This document shows, piece after piece, positions 1,436 to 13,798 of a stretch of 27,306 nucleotides of DNA. Each line of letters starts with the position of its first letter. Within the stretch, counting starts at the first letter, position 1. Under the pieces are notes generated by a model. It saw nothing but the letters and a program-made list of their open reading frames with translations. It had not been told where the DNA came from and ran no database searches. The position numbers and the translations under genes are program-made. Source of the DNA: Candidatus Heimdallarchaeota archaeon (lineage in GTDB: Archaea; Asgardarchaeota; Heimdallarchaeia; Heimdallarchaeales; Heimdallarchaeaceae); assembly GCA_019057375.1 (NCBI GenBank), contig DXJF01000031.1, positions 1 through 27,306 of the forward strand. The letters are read 5' to 3'.

Positions 1436-2488
1436 ATGCTCGATTTAGCAGTAATATATTCAGATTTATTCAAAAAGCATAATATGGACAGAGCTCATCC
1501 AGAATCCTCCCTTAGACTAGATGAAATCATTAAATCATTAAAGAAGATAAAAAAAGAATCTAAGTACTCCATTGAATTTTTTGATCCTGAACCAATAGAG
1601 GAGGAAAATATTCTGTCTGTTCATGTTCCAGATCATATTGCTAAGATTCGAGCAATTTCTCAAGCTGGAGGAGGTATGATTACAATTGACACATCTCTCA
1701 ATGAACATACTTTTGATATTGCAAAGTTATCAGCTGGTGCAACCAAACAAGCTGTAGATTTAGTTGACCAAAATAAAGCTCAGAGAAGTTTCGCAGTTGT
1801 TCGTCCACCTGGTCATCATGCCGAGTATAATTCAGCAGGAGGTTTCTGTTATTTCAACAATGTGGCAATAGCTGCTGAATGGTTAATTCAATACAAGGGT
1901 TATAACCGCATAGCAATTATTGACATCGATCATCATTTTGGGAATGGGACCTCTCATATTTTCTATCACCGTAAAGATGTTTTTTACATATCTTTGCACG
2001 CCCATCCTAATTACTCCTATCCGGGAACTGGTTTTCCTACTGAGATAGGTGTTGTTGAAGGAAAGGGGTATAATGTTAATGTTGCTTTATTACCTGGAAT
2101 AAAAAGTATGGATTGGCTAAAAGCACTGATTTTTTCAATTAATATAGTTAGACAATACAAACCTGAATTTATTCTCGTTTCATTAGGTTTTGATTCTTTA
2201 GCTGGAGACCCAGTAGGTGTTATGAGTGTTGGATCAAATGCGTTTTATGCTGCAGGCTACCTTCTTAATGAAATTGCACAAGAATGTTGCGAAGGTAAAA
2301 TTGCTTGCACTTTAGAAGGTGGATACAAGCTTGACCAATTAGAAGATGTAAGTTCAAAATTCATATTGGGTCTGCTTGGAAACAAGCCATATATATTAGA
2401 TAAATTAGAAGAAACTGAAATTTCTGAACATACTGCTAGTATGTTGAAACAGGTAAGAAAATCGTTACTAGCCCACTGGAGGTTTTAA
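1436..2488 (+). CDS. Zn-dependent histone deacetylase / AcuC-family deacetylase
   Basis: HPES..RL, RPPGHHA, GGFCYFNNVAIAA, IDIDHHFGNGT, SLH, YPGTG, GYNVNV, GFDS..GDP and LEGGY motifs. Confidence 0.93.
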   Translation: MLDLAVIYSDLFKKHNMDRAHPESSLRLDEIIKSLKKIKKESKYSIEFFDPEPIEEENILSVHVPDHIAKIRAISQAGGGMITIDTSLNEHTFDIAKLSAGATKQAVDLVDQNKAQRSFAVVRPPGHHAEYNSAGGFCYFNNVAIAAEWLIQYKGYNRIAIIDIDHHFGNGTSHIFYHRKDVFYISLHAHPNYSYPGTGFPTEIGVVEGKGYNVNVALLPGIKSMDWLKALIFSINIVRQYKPEFILVSLGFDSLAGDPVGVMSVGSNAFYAAGYLLNEIAQECCEGKIACTLEGGYKLDQLEDVSSKFILGLLGNKPYILDKLEETEISEHTASMLKQVRKSLLAHWRF

Positions 2489-2506
2489 CAGCTATTTTCA
2501 TACAAA

Positions 2507-2525
2507 GATGGGAATAATTTTTAAA
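2507..2525 (+). promoter_or_regulatory. Candidate BRE/TATA promoter of the MFS gene
   Basis: Purine-rich GATGGGAATAA followed by TTTTTAAA (2518-2525), 22 nt before ATG 2548. Confidence 0.4.
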
Positions 2526-2547
2526 CATCTATTTTATTTAAAATTCT

Positions 2548-3984
2548 ATGTCTGAAGTTTTCAAAGAAGAGGTTGAATTAGAAACTAAGACTTCCTTAAA
2601 GAATGTCTTTATTTGGTCTTTGTATGACCTTGCTAACACTGTTTATTCTATGGTTATAGTTTCGTTAATTATAAATCAATATGTCCTTATTATTGGTCAA
2701 AGAGTAAACGGTTTTACCTATGCGAAATCAGAATTCATTTTCGCTACAGTTGTAATGGTCATGCAAATAATTATTGCAATTGGAATGCCAATAGCCGGAG
2801 CTTTAAGTGATTATGCGGGCAAACGAAAGCCTTTCGTAATCGTTCTAACTGGAATTATACTGATTTTTGCAAGTCTATTAGGTATATTTCAAAGCCTTTG
2901 GTTGGTTCTATTATTCTATGTGATTGCAAACATGGCATATCAATGGAGTCTTGCTTTCTATGATTCGATGTTACCATTTATTGCAGCACCAAGACATGCT
3001 GGAAAAGTTGGTGGTTTTGGAGTAGCTTTTGGTTACTTAGGAACAATAATTGGTATTGCCGCAATGTTAGTTCTTTCAAGTATTTGGGGATCGCCTAGAA
3101 GTAATCCTGATGACGGATGGGTTAAGTTTGGCTATCTTGATGAATGGTGGACTTATGTAATTGCAATGGGAATTTTCCTGATTTTTGCATTACCTTTCTT
3201 TTTCGTAAAAGAGAGAAAGAAGAAAGGCGAGACACCACCTATGAAGCAAGTTGTAAAAGGATCTTTCAAACAATTAGGAACTACATTTAGAGATATTAGA
3301 CAACACAGAGAGATGTTCAAATTTATCATTGGATATTTCTTAATAGTCGAAGTAGCTAACGTAGTTATTATCAAAATGATTCTTATAGTAACTGATGGAA
3401 TGGGTATGGACTATAGTTTTGCAAATTACTTCATCATTATCGCCACAATATCTGCTGTCCTATTTACGTATCCTGTAGGAATATTCGCTGATAAAAAGGG
3501 TGCAAAAGCAACTTTTGTCATGGTCTGTGGTTTCTGGATAATTGCTTTGGTTATATCAATCATTGCCTCAATTGCTTGGTCTCCAATTGCAGTTCCTGAA
3601 ATGCTTGGCGGTGCTGAAGGTAACGGCTGGTCTTTTCCATTTATCATGGTTTTATTAATGGGCATTTTAGCAGGACCTGCTTTAGGAGGAACTTGGGTTG
3701 CTCAAAGATATATGGTTATTGAACTTGCACCAAAAGAGAAGTTTGGAGAATATATGGGTTTCAGTAAATTATCTGGTAAAGTTTCTGCATCTATTGGACC
3801 AATCATTTGGGCAGCTATTATCGCTTTAAGTGATCCAAATGGTGCCAATTGGGATATGAATGTTACTTATGCTCTAGCTGTTGGTGTTATAGGTCTCATC
3901 ATGTTAGCAGGACTAGTTGTAATTCTCTTTGTTAAACCCACTAAAAGCATATTAAAAGAAGATGGGATGGTAGCAACAAACTAG
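2548..3984 (+). CDS. MFS transporter, UMF1/Atg22(BtlA)-like family
   Basis: About 12 hydrophobic segments; WSLYDLANTVYS, GALSDYAGKRK, FYDSMLPFIA, GIFADKKGAK and PKEKFGEYMGF motifs. Substrate unknown. Confidence 0.85.
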   Translation: MSEVFKEEVELETKTSLKNVFIWSLYDLANTVYSMVIVSLIINQYVLIIGQRVNGFTYAKSEFIFATVVMVMQIIIAIGMPIAGALSDYAGKRKPFVIVLTGIILIFASLLGIFQSLWLVLLFYVIANMAYQWSLAFYDSMLPFIAAPRHAGKVGGFGVAFGYLGTIIGIAAMLVLSSIWGSPRSNPDDGWVKFGYLDEWWTYVIAMGIFLIFALPFFFVKERKKKGETPPMKQVVKGSFKQLGTTFRDIRQHREMFKFIIGYFLIVEVANVVIIKMILIVTDGMGMDYSFANYFIIIATISAVLFTYPVGIFADKKGAKATFVMVCGFWIIALVISIIASIAWSPIAVPEMLGGAEGNGWSFPFIMVLLMGILAGPALGGTWVAQRYMVIELAPKEKFGEYMGFSKLSGKVSASIGPIIWAAIIALSDPNGANWDMNVTYALAVGVIGLIMLAGLVVILFVKPTKSILKEDGMVATN

Positions 3985-4040: not shown

Positions 4041-4064
4041 TTTCTCTTTCTTTATATTAATTTG

Positions 4065-4955
4065 ATGTCTAAAGGAAGTCAGCTTTCAAAAGAAGTTCTA
4101 GATAAAATGTTAAAACTCATCATTGGACGAAAGAAAGAGCTAGAAATGATGGTTAGAGCTATTGAGAAAGATTTACCAATTATTATTGAAGGTCCAGTTG
4201 GAACTGGAAAAACAGAGATGGCTAAAGCTTTAGCAGAGAGTCTTGAGAGACCTTTCATTAGAGTGGATGGTGATGACAGTTTAACCTCTATTAAACTGAA
4301 GGGATGGTATGACCCTCCTCTTGTGCTAGAGAAGGGTTTTTCTAGAGATACATTCATTTCAGGACCTTTAACTGAGGCAATGGAAGAAGGAGGATTATTT
4401 TTCTATAATGAAGTTAATCGTGCACCTTCTGAAACTATTAATGCAGTATTAACAGCTTTGGATGAGAAATTGATAACAATACCTCAGCTAGGAGAAATCA
4501 AAGCACAGAAAGGTTTTATACCCGTTTTCACCTATAACCCTCACGATACTGTAGCTACAAATCCCTTACCAAAAGCATTCTACGATCGTTGCATTTGGAT
4601 TAGTGTTACTCATCAATCTTTGGAAGAAATGATCGAAATTGTAAAACTTCGAACATCTAGCTCAGACAACTTTCTTATTCGAATATCATGTGAGATTGTT
4701 GAAGCTTCATTAAATCATCCTGAGCTTGAATATGGTTCAACTGTTCGTGGTGCAATGCAATTAGTAAATCTCTTTAGAGTAAATGAAAGAATAGATGAGC
4801 TTGAACTTATCGAGAGAGCAATATCCGTTCATTCTCGGAAGATTAGATGTAAAACATCCAGTAGAAAAAGCGAAGTAAAGATTATAGAAGAAATCATCTC
4901 TAAAGTCTTGTCTAAATATGATAAAGATAGGATATCACGAAAAAAAGAAGACTAG
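4065..4955 (+). CDS. MoxR/CoxD-type AAA+ ATPase (AAA_5); short, non-frameshifted product of a putative frameshifted gene
   Basis: Walker A GPVGTGKT, variant Walker B LFFYNEVNRAP, FTYNP and LPKAFYDR (arginine finger region). The ORF track starts at TTG 4062; ATG 4065 is the more likely start. Confidence 0.88.
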   Translation: MSKGSQLSKEVLDKMLKLIIGRKKELEMMVRAIEKDLPIIIEGPVGTGKTEMAKALAESLERPFIRVDGDDSLTSIKLKGWYDPPLVLEKGFSRDTFISGPLTEAMEEGGLFFYNEVNRAPSETINAVLTALDEKLITIPQLGEIKAQKGFIPVFTYNPHDTVATNPLPKAFYDRCIWISVTHQSLEEMIEIVKLRTSSSDNFLIRISCEIVEASLNHPELEYGSTVRGAMQLVNLFRVNERIDELELIERAISVHSRKIRCKTSSRKSEVKIIEEIISKVLSKYDKDRISRKKED

Positions 4956-4989
4956 GTGACCTTACATCATCCATTGTAGGGGATGAACC
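4940..4989 (+). other. Putative -1 programmed ribosomal frameshift signal: A_AAA_AAA heptamer plus downstream hairpin
   Basis: A7 at 4940-4946 is in X_XXY_YYZ register with the AAA+ frame. The 0-frame stop is TAG 4953. The -1 frame opens after TAG 4928-4930 and is stop-free into the VWA ORF. CCTTACA (4960-4966) can pair with TGTAGGG (4975-4981), extended by GGT 4955-4957 with ACC 4987-4989. Confidence 0.6.
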
Positions 4990-5020
4990 GTTTCTTGCTT
5001 TCCCATCAAATGCTGGTCGA

Positions 5021-5977
5021 ATGACTATCAATGAGATTCATCTTGAACTTGGTAAAAAAGAAGATAATATGGCACGTATTATCGAATTGGCTGAAAGAGC
5101 AGCAGAGGAAAGTAATTTGGAGGGTTTAAGGCTTATTGCAACCAATTATCCCATGATAGCAGCTAAAATACTTAATAAAATTGATTTGACTGACGAAATG
5201 TTAGAAAATCTTGCAGGAGAAGATTTGATTCAGCTATATTCTAGAACAAAAAAACATCTTAACTATAATATTCGTAAGAAACTCCTAGAGAAACTTATAC
5301 CATTCATAACTGAAAAAGCCAAAACTATATTCAGACGAGGGATTTCATCATCAGTTTCTAGATATGTAAATTATGAACCTAGTGATTCCTGGGAAATTGA
5401 GATGACTTTTGAGAAAATGTTGAGTAGTGGGAAGCAAGTTCCTGACTATGACAGTATAGTGGTCAAAGAACCTTCAAAAAGAAAGAAAAGTATTGTTATT
5501 TGTATTGATAAAAGTCTTAGTGTTTTACGGTTAATCCATCAGATAGTTTTGATGGCTTCTGTTTTGTCTCTTTCAGTTAAGAGAGACAATTTTGCTATAA
5601 TAGAATTTGACTCAGAAGCTCAATTGTTGAAGCCTATGGCTAAGAGAATCCCACCTGAAGAATTAGTAGAACTAATTTTGAATATTGAAAGCGGAGGGAA
5701 AACAGATTTAAATGAAGCCCTACTATTAGCTACAAAACAGCTGAAAGATAGCTCATCAAGAGAAAAAATCATCTATATCATTAGTGACCTTGAGAGAACT
5801 ATAGGAAGAAATCCACTCCCAACTATTCAACGTATTCCAGATTTAAGAGTAGTTTATGCGAGGACATATAGACGCGTATCTTTTGTTGATGAAATCGTTT
5901 CTCTATCGAATGTAAAGATGGTTGAATTGAATCACAATTCCGATCTAGTGGAATTAACTACCAAATTAGTTTTTTGA
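5021..5977 (+). CDS. von Willebrand factor A (VWA) domain protein, partner of the MoxR ATPase; the frame is open upstream to 4931
   Basis: C-terminal VWA domain with MIDAS IDKSLS (DxSxS), GGKTDL.EAL (Thr) and IISD (Asp). The helical N-terminal region and the WEIEMT...VVKE segment resemble CoxE-like VWA proteins. Confidence 0.85.
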   Translation: MTINEIHLELGKKEDNMARIIELAERAAEESNLEGLRLIATNYPMIAAKILNKIDLTDEMLENLAGEDLIQLYSRTKKHLNYNIRKKLLEKLIPFITEKAKTIFRRGISSSVSRYVNYEPSDSWEIEMTFEKMLSSGKQVPDYDSIVVKEPSKRKKSIVICIDKSLSVLRLIHQIVLMASVLSLSVKRDNFAIIEFDSEAQLLKPMAKRIPPEELVELILNIESGGKTDLNEALLLATKQLKDSSSREKIIYIISDLERTIGRNPLPTIQRIPDLRVVYARTYRRVSFVDEIVSLSNVKMVELNHNSDLVELTTKLVF

Positions 5978-7312
5978 TTTAGTTTTCTTACTCTTTCTAA
6001 GTGCGATTATTTGGTCTGCAATAATTATTACCAACCCAACCCCACTTAATATTCCTCCTTCTATAACTGCTTGTTTTCTATGTATAACATAATTTATAGC
6101 AATTTTAGCTTCATAAATGAAAGATTCAGTTGTGTTCCACTCATCTACAAATGTGATTAAGAAAACTGTTTCTTCTTCCTCAGTTTCATTCATAGTTATA
6201 AGAATACCAGAATCTACTTCTTCTCCAATTAGTTTAGACTCGAAAATACTTTCATCTTTTGCTTGATTAGTAATGTTTGAATAAGAAGCAATCATCTGTC
6301 CATAAGTGATATTTTTATCATAGTAGTTATTCGTCAAATTTTCAAAATTATCAAAAAAACTAATGAAAGTATCATTATTGGTAGTAAGGACTGTAACATT
6401 ATAATCAACTAAACCTGTTTCACTACTAAAGTTAACTAAAGTGGTAGCTTGGGGTTTGTTTACAAGAGCTATACCCAGAGTTGGATCGAAGAATGATTGC
6501 GTACTCTTGTACTCATATGAAATCTCATAATCAACAGATCTATTCAAACCGATAATAGGTCCTAGCATTAGACCTAAGAATATTAGAAATATTCCAAAGA
6601 GTGTGAGTTGTCTCTTTATCAAACTCCACGTTGCTTTTAAATTTGTATAAAATTTCTTCCAGTCTTCTACTGGTTTCTGTTTCTTTCTCCTGAATGCTGG
6701 AAATAGGATTACTATCATCCATACAATAAATAAGAGAACATGAAATGTGAACTGAGCGATGTATAAATCCAGAAATTCTCCATAAATTGATTGAAGTTCT
6801 TCTTGAGATAGATTTATGAAAAATATTCTTTGCCCTTCAGTCATAGTATAAATCGACCAATCTGGAATCAGACCAACAAAGGTCAATGGGAAGAACAACC
6901 ATGCTTCGTTTTTGAATCGAAGGTAAACTGAAAGATCATACAGATTATTATCTAAAGGCCAGAATAACAGAAGAGGCCCCCAGCTGAGGTCCAGAAAAAT
7001 ATGAACTAACCACATCAGTGAAGCCAATTTAACAAATCTTACAGTTTTGTAAGTTGCTGATTCTATTGGACTTGCGTCTTTATTGATTTTATCTATTACT
7101 AGCATACTGAAAAGAATGAAAGTGGGAAGAATCAAGCTGTGCGTGTAAGACCTGTGAAATCCAAAAAGTAAATCTATATCGGGGAGAACCGCTACAAGAT
7201 TAATGAGTATAAACTCCCATCTATGTTCTTTATAATATGTCTTATTCTTCTTTGATAATAATAACCATGCAATAATACCTTGTACAGCTAGATGTGTGGG
7301 TGTATATGTCAT
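5966..7312 (-). CDS. Membrane-bound metal-dependent hydrolase (YdjM/DUF457-like) fused to a C-terminal membrane-flanked domain
   Basis: N-terminal THL...LPDIDL...HRSYTHSL...HIFLD...LLFWP motifs, several TM helices and a C-terminal TM with a basic tail. Overlaps the convergent VWA gene by 12 bp. Confidence 0.75.
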   Translation of the reverse strand: MTYTPTHLAVQGIIAWLLLSKKNKTYYKEHRWEFILINLVAVLPDIDLLFGFHRSYTHSLILPTFILFSMLVIDKINKDASPIESATYKTVRFVKLASLMWLVHIFLDLSWGPLLLFWPLDNNLYDLSVYLRFKNEAWLFFPLTFVGLIPDWSIYTMTEGQRIFFINLSQEELQSIYGEFLDLYIAQFTFHVLLFIVWMIVILFPAFRRKKQKPVEDWKKFYTNLKATWSLIKRQLTLFGIFLIFLGLMLGPIIGLNRSVDYEISYEYKSTQSFFDPTLGIALVNKPQATTLVNFSSETGLVDYNVTVLTTNNDTFISFFDNFENLTNNYYDKNITYGQMIASYSNITNQAKDESIFESKLIGEEVDSGILITMNETEEEETVFLITFVDEWNTTESFIYEAKIAINYVIHRKQAVIEGGILSGVGLVIIIADQIIALRKSKKTKSKN

Positions 7313-7480: not shown

Positions 7481-10400
7481 ATGCACATAGATATGCAATC
7501 CAGTCCAAGCGAAAGATTCAGAGAGTTTTTTCAAGCATATCAAGATGAAAATGGGAGACATATTTATGTTGGACAAGTTCAAAAAATGTCTTTAGAAGGT
7601 CTTTTATCTCTTTTTGTAAATTATGATGATTTATTACGATTTGATCCCGAGTCAGCTAAAAAACTACGCGAAGAACCTGAACTTACAATCAAAGCTGCAG
7701 ATGATGCACTAGTAGAGGTTTTAAAGATTGAAGATTCAATTTATGCGTCTAGTGATGAAACTGAAGGTCTATTTCATGTTCGATTTTCAAATCTTCCAGA
7801 TTTAGTTAATCTACGTCGTTTACGATCAGTTCATTTAGGAAAATTGTTAGCTGTTGAAGGTATTATTATTCGTCAAACTGTAGTTAAACCTCTTTTGATT
7901 CAAGGAGTTTTCCAATGTGCTCGATGTGGAGAAGTTCATTATGTTTCTCAAGAAGGTGGATACTATACAGAACCAACTAAATGTGTTAATCCAAATTGTG
8001 GGAAAAACGGACCATTTAATCTTCTAACAGAAGAATCAACTTATACTGATTTTCAATCTATTACAGTGCAAGAAAAACCTGAAAGTCTTCCTCCAGGCCA
8101 AATTCCCCGTTCGGTTCCAGCTAGATTAATAGGCGATTTAGTTGATACTGTCAGAGCAGGTGATAGAGCAATCGTTTCAGGAATTCTCCGCATGAAAATA
8201 AAAGGAGTGCAAAGGGGAAAGCTGGCAACATTTGACCCTTGGTTAGATGTAAATTTTGTTTCATCTAGAGAAAAGGAGTTTGAAGAGATTGATATTGATC
8301 CAGAAACAGAACAAGAAATTTTAGCTCTTTCTACTGACATCAACATCCATAGAAGAATAATCAGATCTGTTGCCCCGTCGATTTATGGAATGGAGACAAT
8401 AAAAGAAGCTTTAGCTACAGTTCTGTTTGGAGGAGTTTCCAGAGTTGCTCCTGATGGTATGAAACAGAGAGGGGATTCTAATTTATTAATGATAGGAGAT
8501 CCTGGAGTAGCTAAATGTGTGCATGCAGAAACTAAGGTTTTACTAGTAAATGGTGAAACAAAGATAATAAAGAACTTAGTTGAAGAAAATCTAAAAAACA
8601 ATCAACACATAATTGATGATGGATTTTATGCAAAAGGAGCTTGTCCTATTTTAACATTGAACAAAAACGGAAAAATTGAAAATGCAAATGCTAACATTTT
8701 CTGGAAAAGAAAAACTCCAAATGAGATGTTTGAGATTAAAACATCTAGCGGAAAAGAATTAATTGTAACTCCAACTCATCCTTTCTACACAACATTAGGT
8801 GGTTTGATTTTATCAAGAAAAGCTATGAATGTAAAAATAGGAGAATTCATAGCATCTCCCAGAAAAATAAAAACTAATCCAGATGAGAAAATTAGATTGA
8901 GTATTAAAGAAGGAAAAACATCAGCTCAAAAAATTCGAATACCTACAGAAATAACACCTGAATTTTCTAGTTTCTTAGGATATATTTGTGGAGATGGCTA
9001 CTTACAAAAGACCAGCACATCATCATATGTTTGGTTTACAAATAATGAAGAATTTTTAATTAATGATTATATAAGATGTTTAACTAGCACATTTGGTGAT
9101 ATTAACTATACTGTAAGAGATTCACATAAGGGGAAGAGTGCAAAAGATGTTTACGTTTCTTCAATAGAATTAGGAAGAATTTTAGAGAAAATTTCTCCTA
9201 GTTTTTACGAGGGTGCATACAAGAAGATAGTGCCCAATGTTATTATGCGAGCTCCTAAAGGTTCAGTAGAAGCTTTTCTTAGAGCTTATTTTGACACTGA
9301 TGGTACCGTTGGAAGAGACAGATGTACAATATCTGCTACATCCGCAAGTAAACAGCTTTTACAGGATATTCAGCTACTTTTGAATCGGTTTAGTATAATA
9401 TCACAATTAGGATATACTCACTCAAAAAGTCAGTCATCCCCGCTACAGAAATATTATAGACTAAAAATTACATCTATAGAGGAGTTCAAAAGATTTAGAG
9501 ATTTAATAGGTTTTAATTCATACAAGAAAGATAGATTAGCTAGAAATTTAGATTCAAATACTAATATTGATGTAATTCCTGGTCTAAATAAGATTCTTTT
9601 AGAAATTAGAAAGGAATTGAATCTTTCTCAATCTCAAATGGGATTGATACGAAGTACTTACCAACATTATGAAAGAAATGACAGGAAACCTTCAATTCCA
9701 AGTCTTACAAAAATTGTTCGAGAGCTTCAAAAGTATGGACATAATGATAAAGTAGAAAGAATTGAAAAACTTCTAAATGCAGATATTTTCTGGGATAGAA
9801 TAATTTCAATTGAAAGATTTAAACCAGATTTTGAATGGGTTTATGATATACAAGTACCAGAAACTCATAATTTCATAGCTAATGGATTATTTGTTCACAA
9901 TAGTCAATTACTTCAATATGTTCATCGTCTTGCACCTAGAGGGTTACTTACATCAGGAAAGGCAAGTTCTGCGGCTGGTCTAACTGCAGCTGTTATCAGG
10001 GATGCTGAAACTGGAGAGTTTGGTTTAGAAGCAGGAGCTTTAGTATTAGCAGATAGAGGAGTATGTTTAACTGGTGATACAGAAATATTAATGTCTTCAG
10101 GAGAACTACTTCCAATTCAAGAAATAGTAGAAAATGATTTAGAAGGAGAAGTTATTTCCTTTAATCAACTTACATATGATTTGAATACAAACAAAATTGT
10201 TTCAAAATCGAAAAGAGAAAGTGAGAAAGTTTACAATCTAGAATTTTCTTCTGGTGAAATTCTCAAAGCTTCTGAAGAGCATCCTTTTCCAGTCTGGGAT
10301 AATGGTTTAATTTGGAAGAAAGCTGTTGATTTAAAGGAAAATGAAGTCATTATTGATTTCAGAAATTACCCTTTTTCAAAAAAACAGAAAAAAGAAGGGA

Positions 10401-13400
10401 TAGATAAAGAAATTACAGAAGATTTGGCTGAGTTATTAGGGTTAGTTGTATCTGACGGGAATCTATCAAAAGAAAAATATCGAATTACTTTCTATTCAAA
10501 ATCTATTGAATTACTGCAAAGATTCCGTGATCTGGTACATAGTGTATTTAACATAGAAGTTAAAGAATATACTGACAAAAGAAGCAACATTAAAAGGTTG
10601 TATTTTAATGATAAGGAAATACATCAGTTTCTTAAAAGTCTTGGAATTCCTAATGAAAACAAATCAAAAAGTAGGTGTGTACTAAAAGAAATTCAAAATT
10701 CGTCTTCGGATATTGTTCAATCTTTTATAGCAGGAGTAATCAATGGAGATGGATCTATTTCCAACAGAAAATCTGGTGGTATAGTTGACATAGTTATTGG
10801 AAATAAGGAAACAGCTGAATTTTACAAAAAACTATTCAGAAAAATAGGGATTATAGCAAAAATAAATAAAACTATTCAAATGGGAGGAGGAGTTGTTAAG
10901 AAAGGCGTATATCTCACCTATAAAATATCCATAACAGGAGTATCAAATATCCAAAAATTAGACTCATCTAGATTAATCTCATACAAAAAAGATAATTACT
11001 TCAAGATTACAACACGACAAGATAAATTTGATAAGATCTACAAAATTGATAAATTAATCAAGTCTCTTTCAGAACAAATACCACATGGACATAAACACAT
11101 TTTATACAATAATAGCATTAGAAAAAGTCAACTCAGCAAGGTAGGTATTAATAGAAAAAACTTAGTAAATGCATTGGAACAGTTAAGCAAAATTGAGGGT
11201 ATTCAAGAAAGTTCCGAATACAAAAATCTTCAAAGGATAATATCGAAGAATTTGAGTTTTATTATTCTTAGAAAGAAGAAAAAAATACAATCTCAAACAG
11301 TCTATAACATTCAAATAGCAAATGATGAAACATATTTTGCGAACTTTATACTTGTTCATAATTGTATGATAGATGAGTTCGATAAAATGAATCCAACTGA
11401 TAGATCCTCAATTCATGAAGCGATGGAACAACAATCTTATCATCCAAGTTTTGAAATATCATTTCTGGACGGTCAAAAACAACAAATTGGAAGTTTTGTT
11501 GATAATCTTTTCAAAGAAAATGAGGAATCTAAAATCATCGGTAAAGATTGTGAAATACTTCCTGTAGAGAATCATGGTTTCAATGTTTTAACTACAGATT
11601 TCAAGACTATTTATGATACAAATGTCAATAGGATTAGTCGACACCTAGCTGCTGATCATTTTATAAAAATCACATATTCAAATGGTAGAGACATTATAGT
11701 AACTCCTGAACATCCAATTTATACAATGCACAGTGGAGAAATTCAAATTGTCGCTGCAGATAAGGTAATGGAAAATATGTTTGTTCCAGGAGTTCGATAT
11801 TTAGATAATAGAAACAGCTCTTCATTAGTAACAGACTTCTCAAGAGGAAGAAAGAATGTAACACTTCCAGATACTATTACTAATGATTTTGCAAAATTCT
11901 TGGGTTACTATATCGCTGAAGGATATTCGTATAAAGGTTCTTCATTAGAAGTAGGGTTAAGCAATACTGATCCCAAAATAGGAGAGGATATGATCAGTAG
12001 CATTAGAAATACATTCAATACTGAACCAATTAATAATGTTGAACAAAACAGAACAATTCGAATAATTTCTACCGACATTTATAATTATTTAACCGAAAAC
12101 TTCCCTAAAACAATGCAAAAAAGTTATATCAAACGAATTGATAAAAAAATATTTTGCATAGATGAGAGCATGAGAATTGAATTCCTCAAAGCTGCATTTG
12201 CTGGAGATGGTTCTGTAGAAAGCACCTCCATTGCATATTCTACATCATCTAAGGGATTAGCTCATGATTATCAAGATCTACTTTTAACTCTTGGAATTAG
12301 TTCTCGAATTACCAGCGAAGAGTATTCCTTTGGTAAAGACAAGGAGCACCACAGAACTAGATACAAGGTATATATCAGAGGTGATAGTTTGGAAAAGTTC
12401 AGTTCTCAAATAATTGGAGAACCAGAAACAAATCCAAAACTAATGAAACTGCTAATTCAGAATAGAAATTCAAATAGAAAGCATGACGTTCTTCCTCCAG
12501 ATGTTGCCAATATCATTATAGATTCTCTTCATCACCTTGGATTAAGTTATGATGGTTATTTCTATCAACATCTGAAGTACAATTATGGTATAACAGTAGA
12601 GGTCATCAGTAAATACTATGACAAATTAACTAGGAGATATTATCTACTTCTGAGTAAAATTAGACAAACTAAAACACCCAAAGAGCTTAGAGTTCTAGTA
12701 GGGTATTCATTAAGCAAGATGGCTAAGCTTGTTGGAATTTCTAGAGGTACATTATCAAAATATGAACAAATTAATAGGTCAGATTTACTTCCCAAATATA
12801 AACAAGTGATAGAAAATCAGTTAGAAAAGGTGAAAGACGGATTAGTAAGGATTGATTATCTTCGAGATTTCAGATGGTTGAGAATTAAGAAAATTGAAAA
12901 AATAAAGAATGAAGGAGAATATGCAACTAAGTGGGTTTATGATGTCACAATTGAGCCAACAGAGAATTTCATAAGTCACGGACTTGTTCTTCATAATACC
13001 GTCAGTATAGCAAAAGCTGGTATTGTCGCTCAACTCAATGCAAGAACAGCAATTATTGCAGCTGCTAATCCTCGTTTTGGAAGGTATGAAGATTCTCGCC
13101 CTCCTGTTGAGAACATTAATCTCCCCCCAACTATTTTATCGCGTTTTGATTTAATCTATATTATTCGCGATGAACCAGATGTAGAGACAGATAAAAGAAT
13201 GGCTAGACATATCTTGGAATTACGAAGAGGTCATGTTATTGAAGATACTGAACCTACAATTAATATGGATCTGTTAAGAAAGTATATCAGTTATGCAAAA
13301 CAACACGTTCAACCCGCTCTTACTGATGATGCTATGGAGAGAATTGAGCAATTTTACTTAAACCTTAGAAAAGAATCAGATGATTCATCTGCAATTGCCA

Positions 13401-13798
13401 TAACCCCAAGATACCTAGAAGCTATTATTCGTTTATCTGAATCACAAGCAAGAATGGCTCTTAAAGAAGATGTAACCATAGATCATGTTGAAGCAGCTAT
13501 AAATCTCCTAAGAACTTCATTAGAGCAAGCTGGTAAAGACCCAATTACCGGTCGAGTTGATATAGATTATCTTTTGTCTGGTACAACTAAGACTTCACGT
13601 TCTAAAATGCAAATAATCATTGATATTATGAAAGAAGAATCGAGAGTGGGAAGCTCAGACGTTGTTTCGATAAGAAGAATAAAAGAACTAGCTAAAGATC
13701 AGAATATAGATGATGAATTCGTAGACAGAGTAATTAATCAACTTCGTAGTAATGGAGAGATTTATTCTCCAAGTGATGGTTTTGTGAAATTAGCTTGA
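7481..13798 (+). CDS. mcm: Replicative helicase MCM precursor with three inteins (mature protein about 689 aa)
   Basis: N-terminal domain with a C4 zinc finger (CARC...CVNPNC). Exteins reconstruct GDPGVAK|SQ (Walker A), LADRGV|CMIDEFDKM (Walker B), HEAMEQQ|TVSIAKAG, AAANP and ILSRFDL (arginine finger), plus a C-terminal winged-helix-like region. Confidence 0.97.
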   Translation: MHIDMQSSPSERFREFFQAYQDENGRHIYVGQVQKMSLEGLLSLFVNYDDLLRFDPESAKKLREEPELTIKAADDALVEVLKIEDSIYASSDETEGLFHVRFSNLPDLVNLRRLRSVHLGKLLAVEGIIIRQTVVKPLLIQGVFQCARCGEVHYVSQEGGYYTEPTKCVNPNCGKNGPFNLLTEESTYTDFQSITVQEKPESLPPGQIPRSVPARLIGDLVDTVRAGDRAIVSGILRMKIKGVQRGKLATFDPWLDVNFVSSREKEFEEIDIDPETEQEILALSTDINIHRRIIRSVAPSIYGMETIKEALATVLFGGVSRVAPDGMKQRGDSNLLMIGDPGVAKCVHAETKVLLVNGETKIIKNLVEENLKNNQHIIDDGFYAKGACPILTLNKNGKIENANANIFWKRKTPNEMFEIKTSSGKELIVTPTHPFYTTLGGLILSRKAMNVKIGEFIASPRKIKTNPDEKIRLSIKEGKTSAQKIRIPTEITPEFSSFLGYICGDGYLQKTSTSSYVWFTNNEEFLINDYIRCLTSTFGDINYTVRDSHKGKSAKDVYVSSIELGRILEKISPSFYEGAYKKIVPNVIMRAPKGSVEAFLRAYFDTDGTVGRDRCTISATSASKQLLQDIQLLLNRFSIISQLGYTHSKSQSSPLQKYYRLKITSIEEFKRFRDLIGFNSYKKDRLARNLDSNTNIDVIPGLNKILLEIRKELNLSQSQMGLIRSTYQHYERNDRKPSIPSLTKIVRELQKYGHNDKVERIEKLLNADIFWDRIISIERFKPDFEWVYDIQVPETHNFIANGLFVHNSQLLQYVHRLAPRGLLTSGKASSAAGLTAAVIRDAETGEFGLEAGALVLADRGVCLTGDTEILMSSGELLPIQEIVENDLEGEVISFNQLTYDLNTNKIVSKSKRESEKVYNLEFSSGEILKASEEHPFPVWDNGLIWKKAVDLKENEVIIDFRNYPFSKKQKKEGIDKEITEDLAELLGLVVSDGNLSKEKYRITFYSKSIELLQRFRDLVHSVFNIEVKEYTDKRSNIKRLYFNDKEIHQFLKSLGIPNENKSKSRCVLKEIQNSSSDIVQSFIAGVINGDGSISNRKSGGIVDIVIGNKETAEFYKKLFRKIGIIAKINKTIQMGGGVVKKGVYLTYKISITGVSNIQKLDSSRLISYKKDNYFKITTRQDKFDKIYKIDKLIKSLSEQIPHGHKHILYNNSIRKSQLSKVGINRKNLVNALEQLSKIEGIQESSEYKNLQRIISKNLSFIILRKKKKIQSQTVYNIQIANDETYFANFILVHNCMIDEFDKMNPTDRSSIHEAMEQQSYHPSFEISFLDGQKQQIGSFVDNLFKENEESKIIGKDCEILPVENHGFNVLTTDFKTIYDTNVNRISRHLAADHFIKITYSNGRDIIVTPEHPIYTMHSGEIQIVAADKVMENMFVPGVRYLDNRNSSSLVTDFSRGRKNVTLPDTITNDFAKFLGYYIAEGYSYKGSSLEVGLSNTDPKIGEDMISSIRNTFNTEPINNVEQNRTIRIISTDIYNYLTENFPKTMQKSYIKRIDKKIFCIDESMRIEFLKAAFAGDGSVESTSIAYSTSSKGLAHDYQDLLLTLGISSRITSEEYSFGKDKEHHRTRYKVYIRGDSLEKFSSQIIGEPETNPKLMKLLIQNRNSNRKHDVLPPDVANIIIDSLHHLGLSYDGYFYQHLKYNYGITVEVISKYYDKLTRRYYLLLSKIRQTKTPKELRVLVGYSLSKMAKLVGISRGTLSKYEQINRSDLLPKYKQVIENQLEKVKDGLVRIDYLRDFRWLRIKKIEKIKNEGEYATKWVYDVTIEPTENFISHGLVLHNTVSIAKAGIVAQLNARTAIIAAANPRFGRYEDSRPPVENINLPPTILSRFDLIYIIRDEPDVETDKRMARHILELRRGHVIEDTEPTINMDLLRKYISYAKQHVQPALTDDAMERIEQFYLNLRKESDDSSAIAITPRYLEAIIRLSESQARMALKEDVTIDHVEAAINLLRTSLEQAGKDPITGRVDIDYLLSGTTKTSRSKMQIIIDIMKEESRVGSSDVVSIRRIKELAKDQNIDDEFVDRVINQLRSNGEIYSPSDGFVKLA
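8516..9901 (+). mobile_element. MCM intein 1 (462 aa, in Walker A), with LAGLIDADG homing endonuclease and HTH
   Basis: Starts CVHAETKV; block B IVTPTHPF; FLGYICGDG and FLRAYFDTDG endonuclease motifs; ends VYDIQVPETHNFIANGLFVHN; +1 residue is Ser. Confidence 0.95.
10064..11362 (+). mobile_element. MCM intein 2 (433 aa, just before Walker B), with LAGLIDADG homing endonuclease
   Basis: Starts CLTGDTEI; block B KASEEHPF; LLGLVVSDG and FIAGVINGDG motifs; ends VYNIQIANDETYFANFILVHN; +1 residue is Cys. Confidence 0.95.
11435..12997 (+). mobile_element. MCM intein 3 (521 aa, after MEQQ), Ser-initiated, with LAGLIDADG homing endonuclease and HTH
   Basis: Starts SYHPSFEI; block B IVTPEHPI; FLGYYIAEG and FLKAAFAGDG motifs; ends VYDVTIEPTENFISHGLVLHN; +1 residue is Thr. 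Confidence 0.93.

Follow-up and report, generated by a model that had tools for sequence, protein, structure and literature searches.

A probable programmed -1 ribosomal frameshift linking a NorQ-like AAA+ ATPase to its VWA adaptor in a Heimdallarchaeota archaeon and its relatives

Introduction

The closest described precedent for the locus treated here is fs-chlD of the Mg/Co chelatases (Antonov et al. 2013, PMC3711429; Kuznetsov et al. 2022, PMC9227772; also Antonov 2020, as cited in PMC9227772), a gene from which both an AAA+-only and an AAA+-linker-VWA subunit are made by a -1 shift of the reading frame at A-rich heptamers, with archaeal examples in Methanocaldococcus and Methanococcus (PMC3711429). 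In this study we analyse a 27,306-nucleotide (nt) stretch of DNA from Candidatus Heimdallarchaeota archaeon (contig DXJF01000031.1 of assembly GCA_019057375.1), the whole of which is called the window below, and in particular two adjoining open reading frames (ORFs) on its + strand that encode an AAA+ ATPase and a VWA adaptor. On the strength of comparative sequence analysis, we consider it likely that the two are a single gene, recoded by programmed -1 ribosomal frameshifting into a 296-residue (aa) ATPase and a 637-aa ATPase-linker-VWA fusion.

The resemblance to fs-chlD is manifold: the architecture of the sequence points to the same pair of products from one locus by a -1 shift at an A-rich heptamer; the halves are likewise annotated as two adjacent genes; and in both cases there are in-frame fused relatives and archaeal representatives. 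In contrast to fs-chlD, the ATPase module is of the AAA_5/NorQ-like type, a helical domain precedes the VWA domain, a kink-turn-like RNA element is present, and the organism is an Asgard archaeon of the Heimdall group. In its protein components, namely an AAA_5 ATPase of approximately 30 kDa and, after it, a VWA/MIDAS protein, the locus corresponds to the NorQ/NorD, CbbQ/CbbO and CoxD/CoxE pairs; however, those are separate and independently translated, whereas here the adaptor is predicted to be (also) covalently joined to an ATPase subunit. Among cellular archaeal genes, fucA of Sulfolobus solfataricus consists of two ORFs that a -1 shift at A_AAA_AAT connects, but it codes for a glycosidase rather than a two-subunit machine and is not known to have a kink-turn or a stoichiometric rationale. 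Escherichia coli dnaX (tau/gamma), in the account given of it in PMC3711429, shares with our locus an A_AAA_AAR heptamer, a downstream hairpin, products with a common N-terminus and a ratio that matches the stoichiometry of the complex; it differs in being bacterial, in that the shift makes the shorter product (here it would make the longer one) and in having an upstream Shine-Dalgarno-like stimulator.

Thus, what is new here is the protein family and the lineage, and what is known is the AAA+/AAA+-VWA frameshift strategy itself, archaea included (PMC3711429, PMC9227772). A preliminary description of the window, made from its letters alone, had proposed recoding of an archaeal MoxR system as a novelty; this stands as regards the family and the lineage but not as regards the archaeal use of a frameshifted AAA+-VWA gene, which had already been published (PMC3711429). 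Judged by title and abstract, we found no literature on frameshifting in MoxR/NorQ-type pairs or in Asgard archaea.

Results

A slippery heptamer at the junction of the two reading frames

The features of the locus are as follows:

4062 to 4955, + strand: AAA+ ATPase ORF in the 0 frame, from the ORF list and Pfam, with a likely start at ATG 4065 that gives 296 aa, the product of termination.
4928 to 4930, + strand: TAG that closes the -1 frame upstream and confines a productive shift to 4931-4952.
4940 to 4946, + strand: slippery heptamer A_AAA_AAA, followed by G, the proposed site of a tandem -1 slip of tRNA-Lys.
4947 to 4954, + strand: 8-nt spacer from heptamer to structure, holding most of the 0-frame stop TAG (4953-4955).
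4955 to 4989, + strand: kink-turn-like hairpin, from conservation, covariation and the minimum free energy (MFE) fold.
4946 to 5020, + strand: linker RRLGDLTSSIVGDEPFLAFPSNAGR, in the -1 frame and predicted to be read only after a shift, recognised by its open frame, indels in multiples of three and predicted disorder.
5021 to 5977, + strand: helical domain, then a VWA domain whose MIDAS motif is intact; conventional gene calling makes this a gene of its own, of 318 aa, from ATG 5021.

Read directly from the sequence, the 3' end of the AAA+ ORF runs CGA (from 4938) AAA AAA GAA GAC TAG (4953-4955), which sets the run of seven A (A7) in the A_AAA_AAA register. The VWA frame is the -1 frame: it opens at 4931, passes through ATG 5021 and ends at the stop at 5975-5977, and between 4931 and 5021 the window's -1 frame holds no canonical start. 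The two frames share just the 22 nt around the heptamer (4931-4952). The heptamer, its register and the course of the two frames across the junction are as the preliminary description had them; its product sizes of 296 and 637 aa follow from the coordinates when counted from ATG 4065, and its base counts, namely 30 G or C among the 65 nt of 4956-5020 versus 12 among the 59 nt of 2489-2547, are exact. The predicted frameshift junction reads ...RISRKK followed by RRLGD...GDEPF, or ...ISRKK followed by RRLGDLTSSIVGDEPF...

The A7 run is by itself weak evidence, since the window holds 23 such runs on its two strands, which is fewer than in shuffled sequence. The context of the run is more telling: in-register A_AAA_AAA occurs at six sites within long ORFs of the window, and the site at 4940 alone among these leads into a long -1 ORF, of 345 codons versus 4-10 for the others. 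The junction combines the elements of a -1 frameshift cassette, i.e., an in-register heptamer, an open and coding -1 frame, and a structure 8 nt downstream, inside the 5-9 nt expected of a stimulator.

The heptamer, the phase and the linker frame are conserved

Orthologues of the VWA part were sought first in 61 related genomes, then in 400 genomes of the phylum. They are confined to the organism's own family (f1; genera g1, g2, g3 and g5), one genome of a second family (f2) and 20 of the 22 genomes of a third (f5; loci L029, L030 and L059-L076, genus g14). The comparison below covers 45 loci, 26 from f1, whose VWA identity ranges from 96% down to 38%, and 19 from the more distant f5.

Conservation of the A-tract, its phase and the linker had been put forward as a check on the proposal, and the orthologues bear it out: run, register and -1 phase of the VWA frame are kept at 45 of 45 loci. 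In f1, NNA_AAA_AAA_G is invariant and in register at all 26 loci, with a 0-frame stop 3 or 6 nt past the heptamer in every case and a -1 frame that opens 9-18 nt upstream of it. The flanking codons vary (before the Lys pair CGA at 21 loci, AGA at 4 and TCA at 1; after it GAA, GAG, GGA or GCA). The Lys codons of the heptamer are AAA at 26 of 26 loci, versus a mixture of AAA and AAG in every one of the other 11 invariant-Lys columns of the two ORFs. In f5 the site takes the form A_AAA_AAC/A/T, in register in 19 of 19 orthologues.

The stretch beyond the AAA+ stop behaves as coding sequence in the -1 frame. Within 75 nt of that stop the -1 frame is interrupted at none of the 45 loci, as against 38 of 45 for the 0 frame and 44 of 45 for the +1 frame. 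Indels in the linker are multiples of three, and its diversity by codon position (.30/.21/.41) is coding-like, if looser than that of the gene body (.27/.14/.50).

These data also bear on a rival explanation, whereby the junction would be a sequencing or assembly indel in what is truly an in-frame A8 fusion, or else a decaying pseudogene. Homopolymers are indeed error-prone, and one relative (L028, below) does carry the gene fused in-frame. However, the A7 run, the 0-frame stop 3-6 nt on and the -1 phase recur in 26 genomes, and both halves, AAA+ and VWA, are under purifying selection. Seven close relatives, all metagenome-assembled genomes of Candidatus Heimdallarchaeota, are different isolates and assemblies according to their records; because the A7 recurs in them, it is very unlikely to be an assembly artefact. 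As a whole, we regard this explanation as extremely improbable.

A covarying, kink-turn-like element follows the heptamer

The preliminary description had placed a hairpin at 4955-4989, 8 nt past the heptamer, with GGT/ACC and CCTTACA/TGTAGGG helices, and this holds up as both the MFE fold of 4955-4989 (-10.2 kcal/mol) and a covarying structure. The element reads 5'-GGU-GA-CCUUACA-(8-nt loop)-UGUAGGG-GAU-GA-ACC-3'. A kink-turn, as in box C/D motifs (GUGA ... AUGA), consists of a canonical (C) stem, a 3-nt bulge, tandem sheared G.A/A.G pairs and a non-canonical (NC) stem. The internal loop of 4955-4989 matches this consensus, with the kink itself predicted and the assignment made by that match: the NC stem would be GGU 4955-57 with ACC 4987-89, the GA pairs would involve 4958-59 and 4985-86, the C stem would be 4960-66 with 4975-81, closed by a loop at 4967-74, and the bulge would be GAU at 4982-84. 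It shares with the L7Ae-binding kink-turn and box C/D-like RNAs a C stem, a bulge of 3 nt whose last base is U, tandem GA/GA, a short NC stem and the signature GUGA ... AUGA(A/G)CC; it differs in lying within a coding region, 8 nt past a slippery site, and its L7Ae binding is putative. Judged by titles and abstracts, we found no literature on a kink-turn as a frameshift stimulator.

In an alignment of the 24 distinct f1 sequences (26 loci, two with a duplicate sequence), the spacer is fixed at 8 nt, and the invariant columns are the heptamer with its following G, GG.GA and AUGA.CC; U is invariant at third-codon positions of the element core although C would be synonymous. Paired cells amount to 90%, versus 27-58% for slid controls; each of the seven C-stem pairs has changed on both sides (e.g., CUCUAUC/GAUAGAG in L024), and the covariation score of 0.319 compares with 0.212 in shuffles (0/500). 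The competing TCATCC/GGATGA helix that had also been suggested fared differently: with 61% of its cells paired and no compensatory change, it is not conserved and does no better than the slid controls, and we have dropped it.

In f5 a GC-rich hairpin, GCGGGA-N6-UCCCGC, stands in place of the kink-turn-like one, 7 nt past the heptamer at 16 of 19 loci. It stands out in genomes of ~33% GC, and its sequence encodes a conserved peptide, RD..PA. In the organism's own genome the cassette, in its form of heptamer plus hairpin, is not reused elsewhere: a covariance model of the two run against the whole genome gave only the locus itself as a significant match, with the next match at E 0.24.

With the structure in hand, transcriptional slippage can be weighed, in which RNA polymerase would add one A at the A7 run so that some mRNAs encode the fusion in-frame. 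The site is a homopolymer, and in some of the distant orthologues the run extends to A9 (L065) or A10 (L073 and L075), both A10 loci being without a downstream hairpin. Bacterial cases of transcriptional slippage are known with runs of 9 or more, and A7 is short for efficient slippage; at many orthologous loci the run is no longer than A6, with C or T after it. It is true that the yield of a chlD reporter rose with the length of the A-run (PMC3711429). Yet a polymerase has no need of codon register, and X_XXY_YYZ is kept at 45 of 45 loci; further, a conserved structure at a fixed spacing of 7-8 nt is a hallmark of ribosomal frameshifting. Slippage by the polymerase is in our view improbable.

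Several orthologues have no usable start for a separate VWA protein

At the position of ATG 5021, L009, L011, L026, L027, L029 and L030 have neither ATG nor GTG nor TTG. In the last four, the open -1 frame has to be read as far as codon 60-81 before a canonical start is met; this is already well within the conserved N-terminal domain, which in these orthologues aligns to the window protein from residue 3-16 onwards. An in-frame fused orthologue, the existence of which had been raised as a further check, was sought and found: in L028 (genome G031, family f2) the counterpart is a single in-frame ORF of 643 aa. Its junction, ...FPPKKRF..., ...NRLFPPKKRFIPKEPDF..., matches the predicted frameshift junction, and it keeps CCG AAA AAA CGC at that point, without the stop and without the hairpin.

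The rival account on which these findings bear is that of two ordinary genes, in which the VWA protein would come only from ATG 5021, the spacer would be conserved as an L7Ae-binding kink-turn that regulates VWA translation or mRNA stability, and the A-run and the phase would be by-products. It can draw on ATG 5021 itself, which this genome has in common with most of its genus, on the coincidence of the invariant linker residues GD and (D/N)EP with the RNA core GGUGA / AUGAACC, and on the predicted disorder of the linker. However, it does not readily accommodate the four loci whose first canonical start lies within the conserved domain, a -1 frame that is open at 45 of 45 loci while the other two are closed, with indels only in threes, or a heptamer constrained at the nucleotide level together with an in-frame fused orthologue; moreover, f5 retains the phase and the heptamer with a different hairpin. 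We hold this account to be highly improbable.

There are nonetheless points that tell against a single recoded gene. The orthologues are mutually related, so that the counts given above overstate their independence. ATG 5021 could start a separate VWA protein, and because it is available here and in most of the genus the fusion is not necessarily the sole source of the VWA part. A part of the conservation of the linker peptide (GD...GDEP) is attributable to the RNA motif and not to the protein. As for that motif, the kink is a prediction from consensus, and an Rfam scan of 4850-5100 at E<=10 gave no match. Finally, the stability of the hairpin is no better than that of shuffles (z -0.24 for 4947-5020 and z -0.87 for 4955-4989); hence, of the folding check that had been proposed for this region, the hairpin stands as the MFE structure, but the energy of 4947-5020 is unremarkable, and we have therefore used covariation, not stability, as evidence. 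Weighing these against the foregoing, we continue to favour a programmed frameshift as the likely origin of both products.

The proteins resemble NorQ and NorD

The first ORF matches Pfam AAA_5 (5e-20) and AAA_3 (4e-12), and the second VWA_2 (7e-11) as well as VWA and VWA_CoxE. Among solved structures, the best single-domain match of the ATPase is NorQ, at 56 bits. An AlphaFold2 model of the linker and VWA part (predicted local distance difference test score, pLDDT, 83.5) has a disordered linker at residues 1-25, a helical domain at 27-138 and then the VWA fold; its first helix starts four residues ahead of Met 5021. Across 16 sequences there is no variation in the MIDAS residues D..S.S, T and D (D193, S195, S197, T258 and D286). 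Foldseek ranks NorD chains from NorQD complexes highest for the VWA part, with template-modelling (TM) scores of 0.40/0.56. Taken together, the proteins resemble NorQ/NorD and not the chelatase subunit ChlD. A chelatase identity was considered and rejected: the ATPase has no Pfam Mg_chelatase match at E<=0.01; the BchD-ChlD NCBIfam model gives 23.4 bits where its cut-off is 499.55; and, in a further difference from fs-chlD, CobN/ChlH (PF02514) was not found in the organism's own genome, which is 89% complete. The PF01078 matches in this genome are located away from the locus.

Midasin has a layout of six AAA modules to one MIDAS within one chain. The window ATPase (4062-4952) and the ATPase of the paralogous pair described below (L078:588-1469) match several AAA modules of eukaryotic midasins, with summed scores of 135-138 bits, and the VWA part has the MIDAS domain of human MDN1 among its fold matches. 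We considered a special kinship with midasin and rejected it, as the PDB score of 135 bits adds up several AAA modules of 32-39 bits each, compared with 56 bits for NorQ in a single domain; the midasin matches are compatible only with general AAA_5/MIDAS kinship.

The surroundings of the locus comprise the following:

1436 to 3984, + strand: a histone-deacetylase-family gene and a major facilitator superfamily (MFS)/Atg22-like transporter, upstream.
5966 to 7312, - strand: YdjM-like membrane protein of 448 aa (Pfam YdjM), convergent with the pair, overlapping the 3' end of the VWA frame by 12 nt and outside the recoding signal.
7481 to 13798, + strand: ORF of 2105 aa, just downstream of the locus.

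No known client enzyme is found among the neighbours, i.e., the histone-deacetylase-family protein, the MFS transporter and the YdjM-like membrane protein, and there are no genes nearby for the clients of the NorQ/NorD, CbbQ/CbbO and CoxD/CoxE systems (nitric oxide reductase, Rubisco and CO dehydrogenase). The YdjM-like gene adjoins the pair at all f1 loci (L001-L027) but not in f2 or f5, and is the sole neighbour conserved throughout f1; its product may be a client or partner of the pair. The MFS/Atg22-like transporter adjoins the pair at only some of the orthologous loci.

A paralogous family has U-runs at the same junction

The same genome encodes a paralogous AAA_5/VWA pair on another contig (C12; L078). 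Its AAA+ ORF (588-1472) ends GAT TTT TTC TAG, which places T_TTT_TTC in register (1463-1469), and the -1 frame of its VWA part is open from 1454 to 2551. This paralogue is present in 254 of the 400 genomes of the phylum. At 73 of 78 junctions, from more than 20 families, the VWA part is in the -1 phase; a conserved NNU UUU core precedes the stop by 0-1 codon, and many of the loci are without a start codon for 140-200 nt. As with the A-run genes there is an in-frame version, a 732-aa fusion in L159 (genome G290). In another family (f6, genus g15), three loci (L114-L116) have the VWA part in the +1 phase, and their ATPase ORF ends AAG TTT TTT CGG RCC TAG; these could represent a +1 shift at UUU before the rare CGG codon. 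A fourth f6 locus in the +1 phase, L154, is a weak partial match.

With a looser scanner, a GA-stem-NNN-GA hairpin is detected past the stop at 41 of 73 paralogue loci, versus 7% of control windows; a strict kink-turn scanner finds 6 of 73. A scanner for the reverse orientation has a background of 9% and gives dubious matches in the organism's own genus, for which reason we claim no kink-turn for the paralogue in its own genome. On the evidence of these junctions, recoding of NorQ/NorD-like pairs looks widespread across Asgard archaea, with different slippery sites.

Discussion

Briefly, we advance the following mechanism for the A-run locus. One transcript would carry both ORFs. Most ribosomes would read CGA AAA AAA GAA GAC and stop at TAG 4953, giving the 296-aa NorQ-like ATPase. 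A fraction would pause on A_AAA_AAA, where tRNA-Lys occupies both the P and the A site, because the mRNA entry channel meets the structure 8 nt downstream, and would slip back by one base. These would then read AGA AGA CUA GGU... into a flexible linker of ~25 residues and on through the helical and VWA/MIDAS domains, with the 637-aa ATPase-linker-VWA fusion as the shifted product. As to the yield of such a site, a reporter in E. coli showed 10% frameshifting for A_AAA_AAA within an fs-chlD cassette (PMC3711429).

A low rate of slipping would produce rings in which short subunits predominate and about one adaptor is tethered. This would suit what is known of related MoxR-class rings, which carry one VWA adaptor per hexamer: CbbQ6CbbO1 has this composition (PMC4660213), and in the NorQ hexamer a single NorD finger occupies the pore (PMC13036017).

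The kink-turn-like hairpin is only moderately stable, which suggests that L7Ae might be needed as a roadblock; the moderate stability fits the need for a clamping protein without being proof of it, and the genome encodes two proteins of the L7Ae family (Pfam PF01248). More tentatively, therefore, we raise a wider model, in which the slip is stimulated by a kink-turn bound by L7Ae or a paralogue of it, so that a ribosomal protein acting in trans would set or regulate the ratio of ATPase to fusion, and in which the A-run genes and their U-run paralogues together form a lineage-wide system with one tethered MIDAS per ring, which is the 6 AAA : 1 MIDAS arrangement of the midasin chain. This model is possible but, in our estimation, rather doubtful.

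The locus has several implications. Programmed frameshifting in cellular archaeal genes has been documented in very few cases, and we found none published for the Asgard archaea. The present locus offers a test case conserved across a whole group, with a textbook heptamer, a fixed spacer, an unusual and covarying candidate stimulator and a stoichiometric rationale. It also matters for annotation: gene calling splits such loci in two, the VWA half is left without a usable start in several genomes, and the predicted 637-aa product is missing from protein catalogues. To our knowledge, protein-dependent frameshift switches have so far been described mainly from RNA viruses; if the kink-turn does act via L7Ae, it would constitute a natural switch of this kind in archaea. 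Should the wider model prove true, it would mean that the closest relatives of eukaryotes among the archaea possess a recoding system that spans their lineage.

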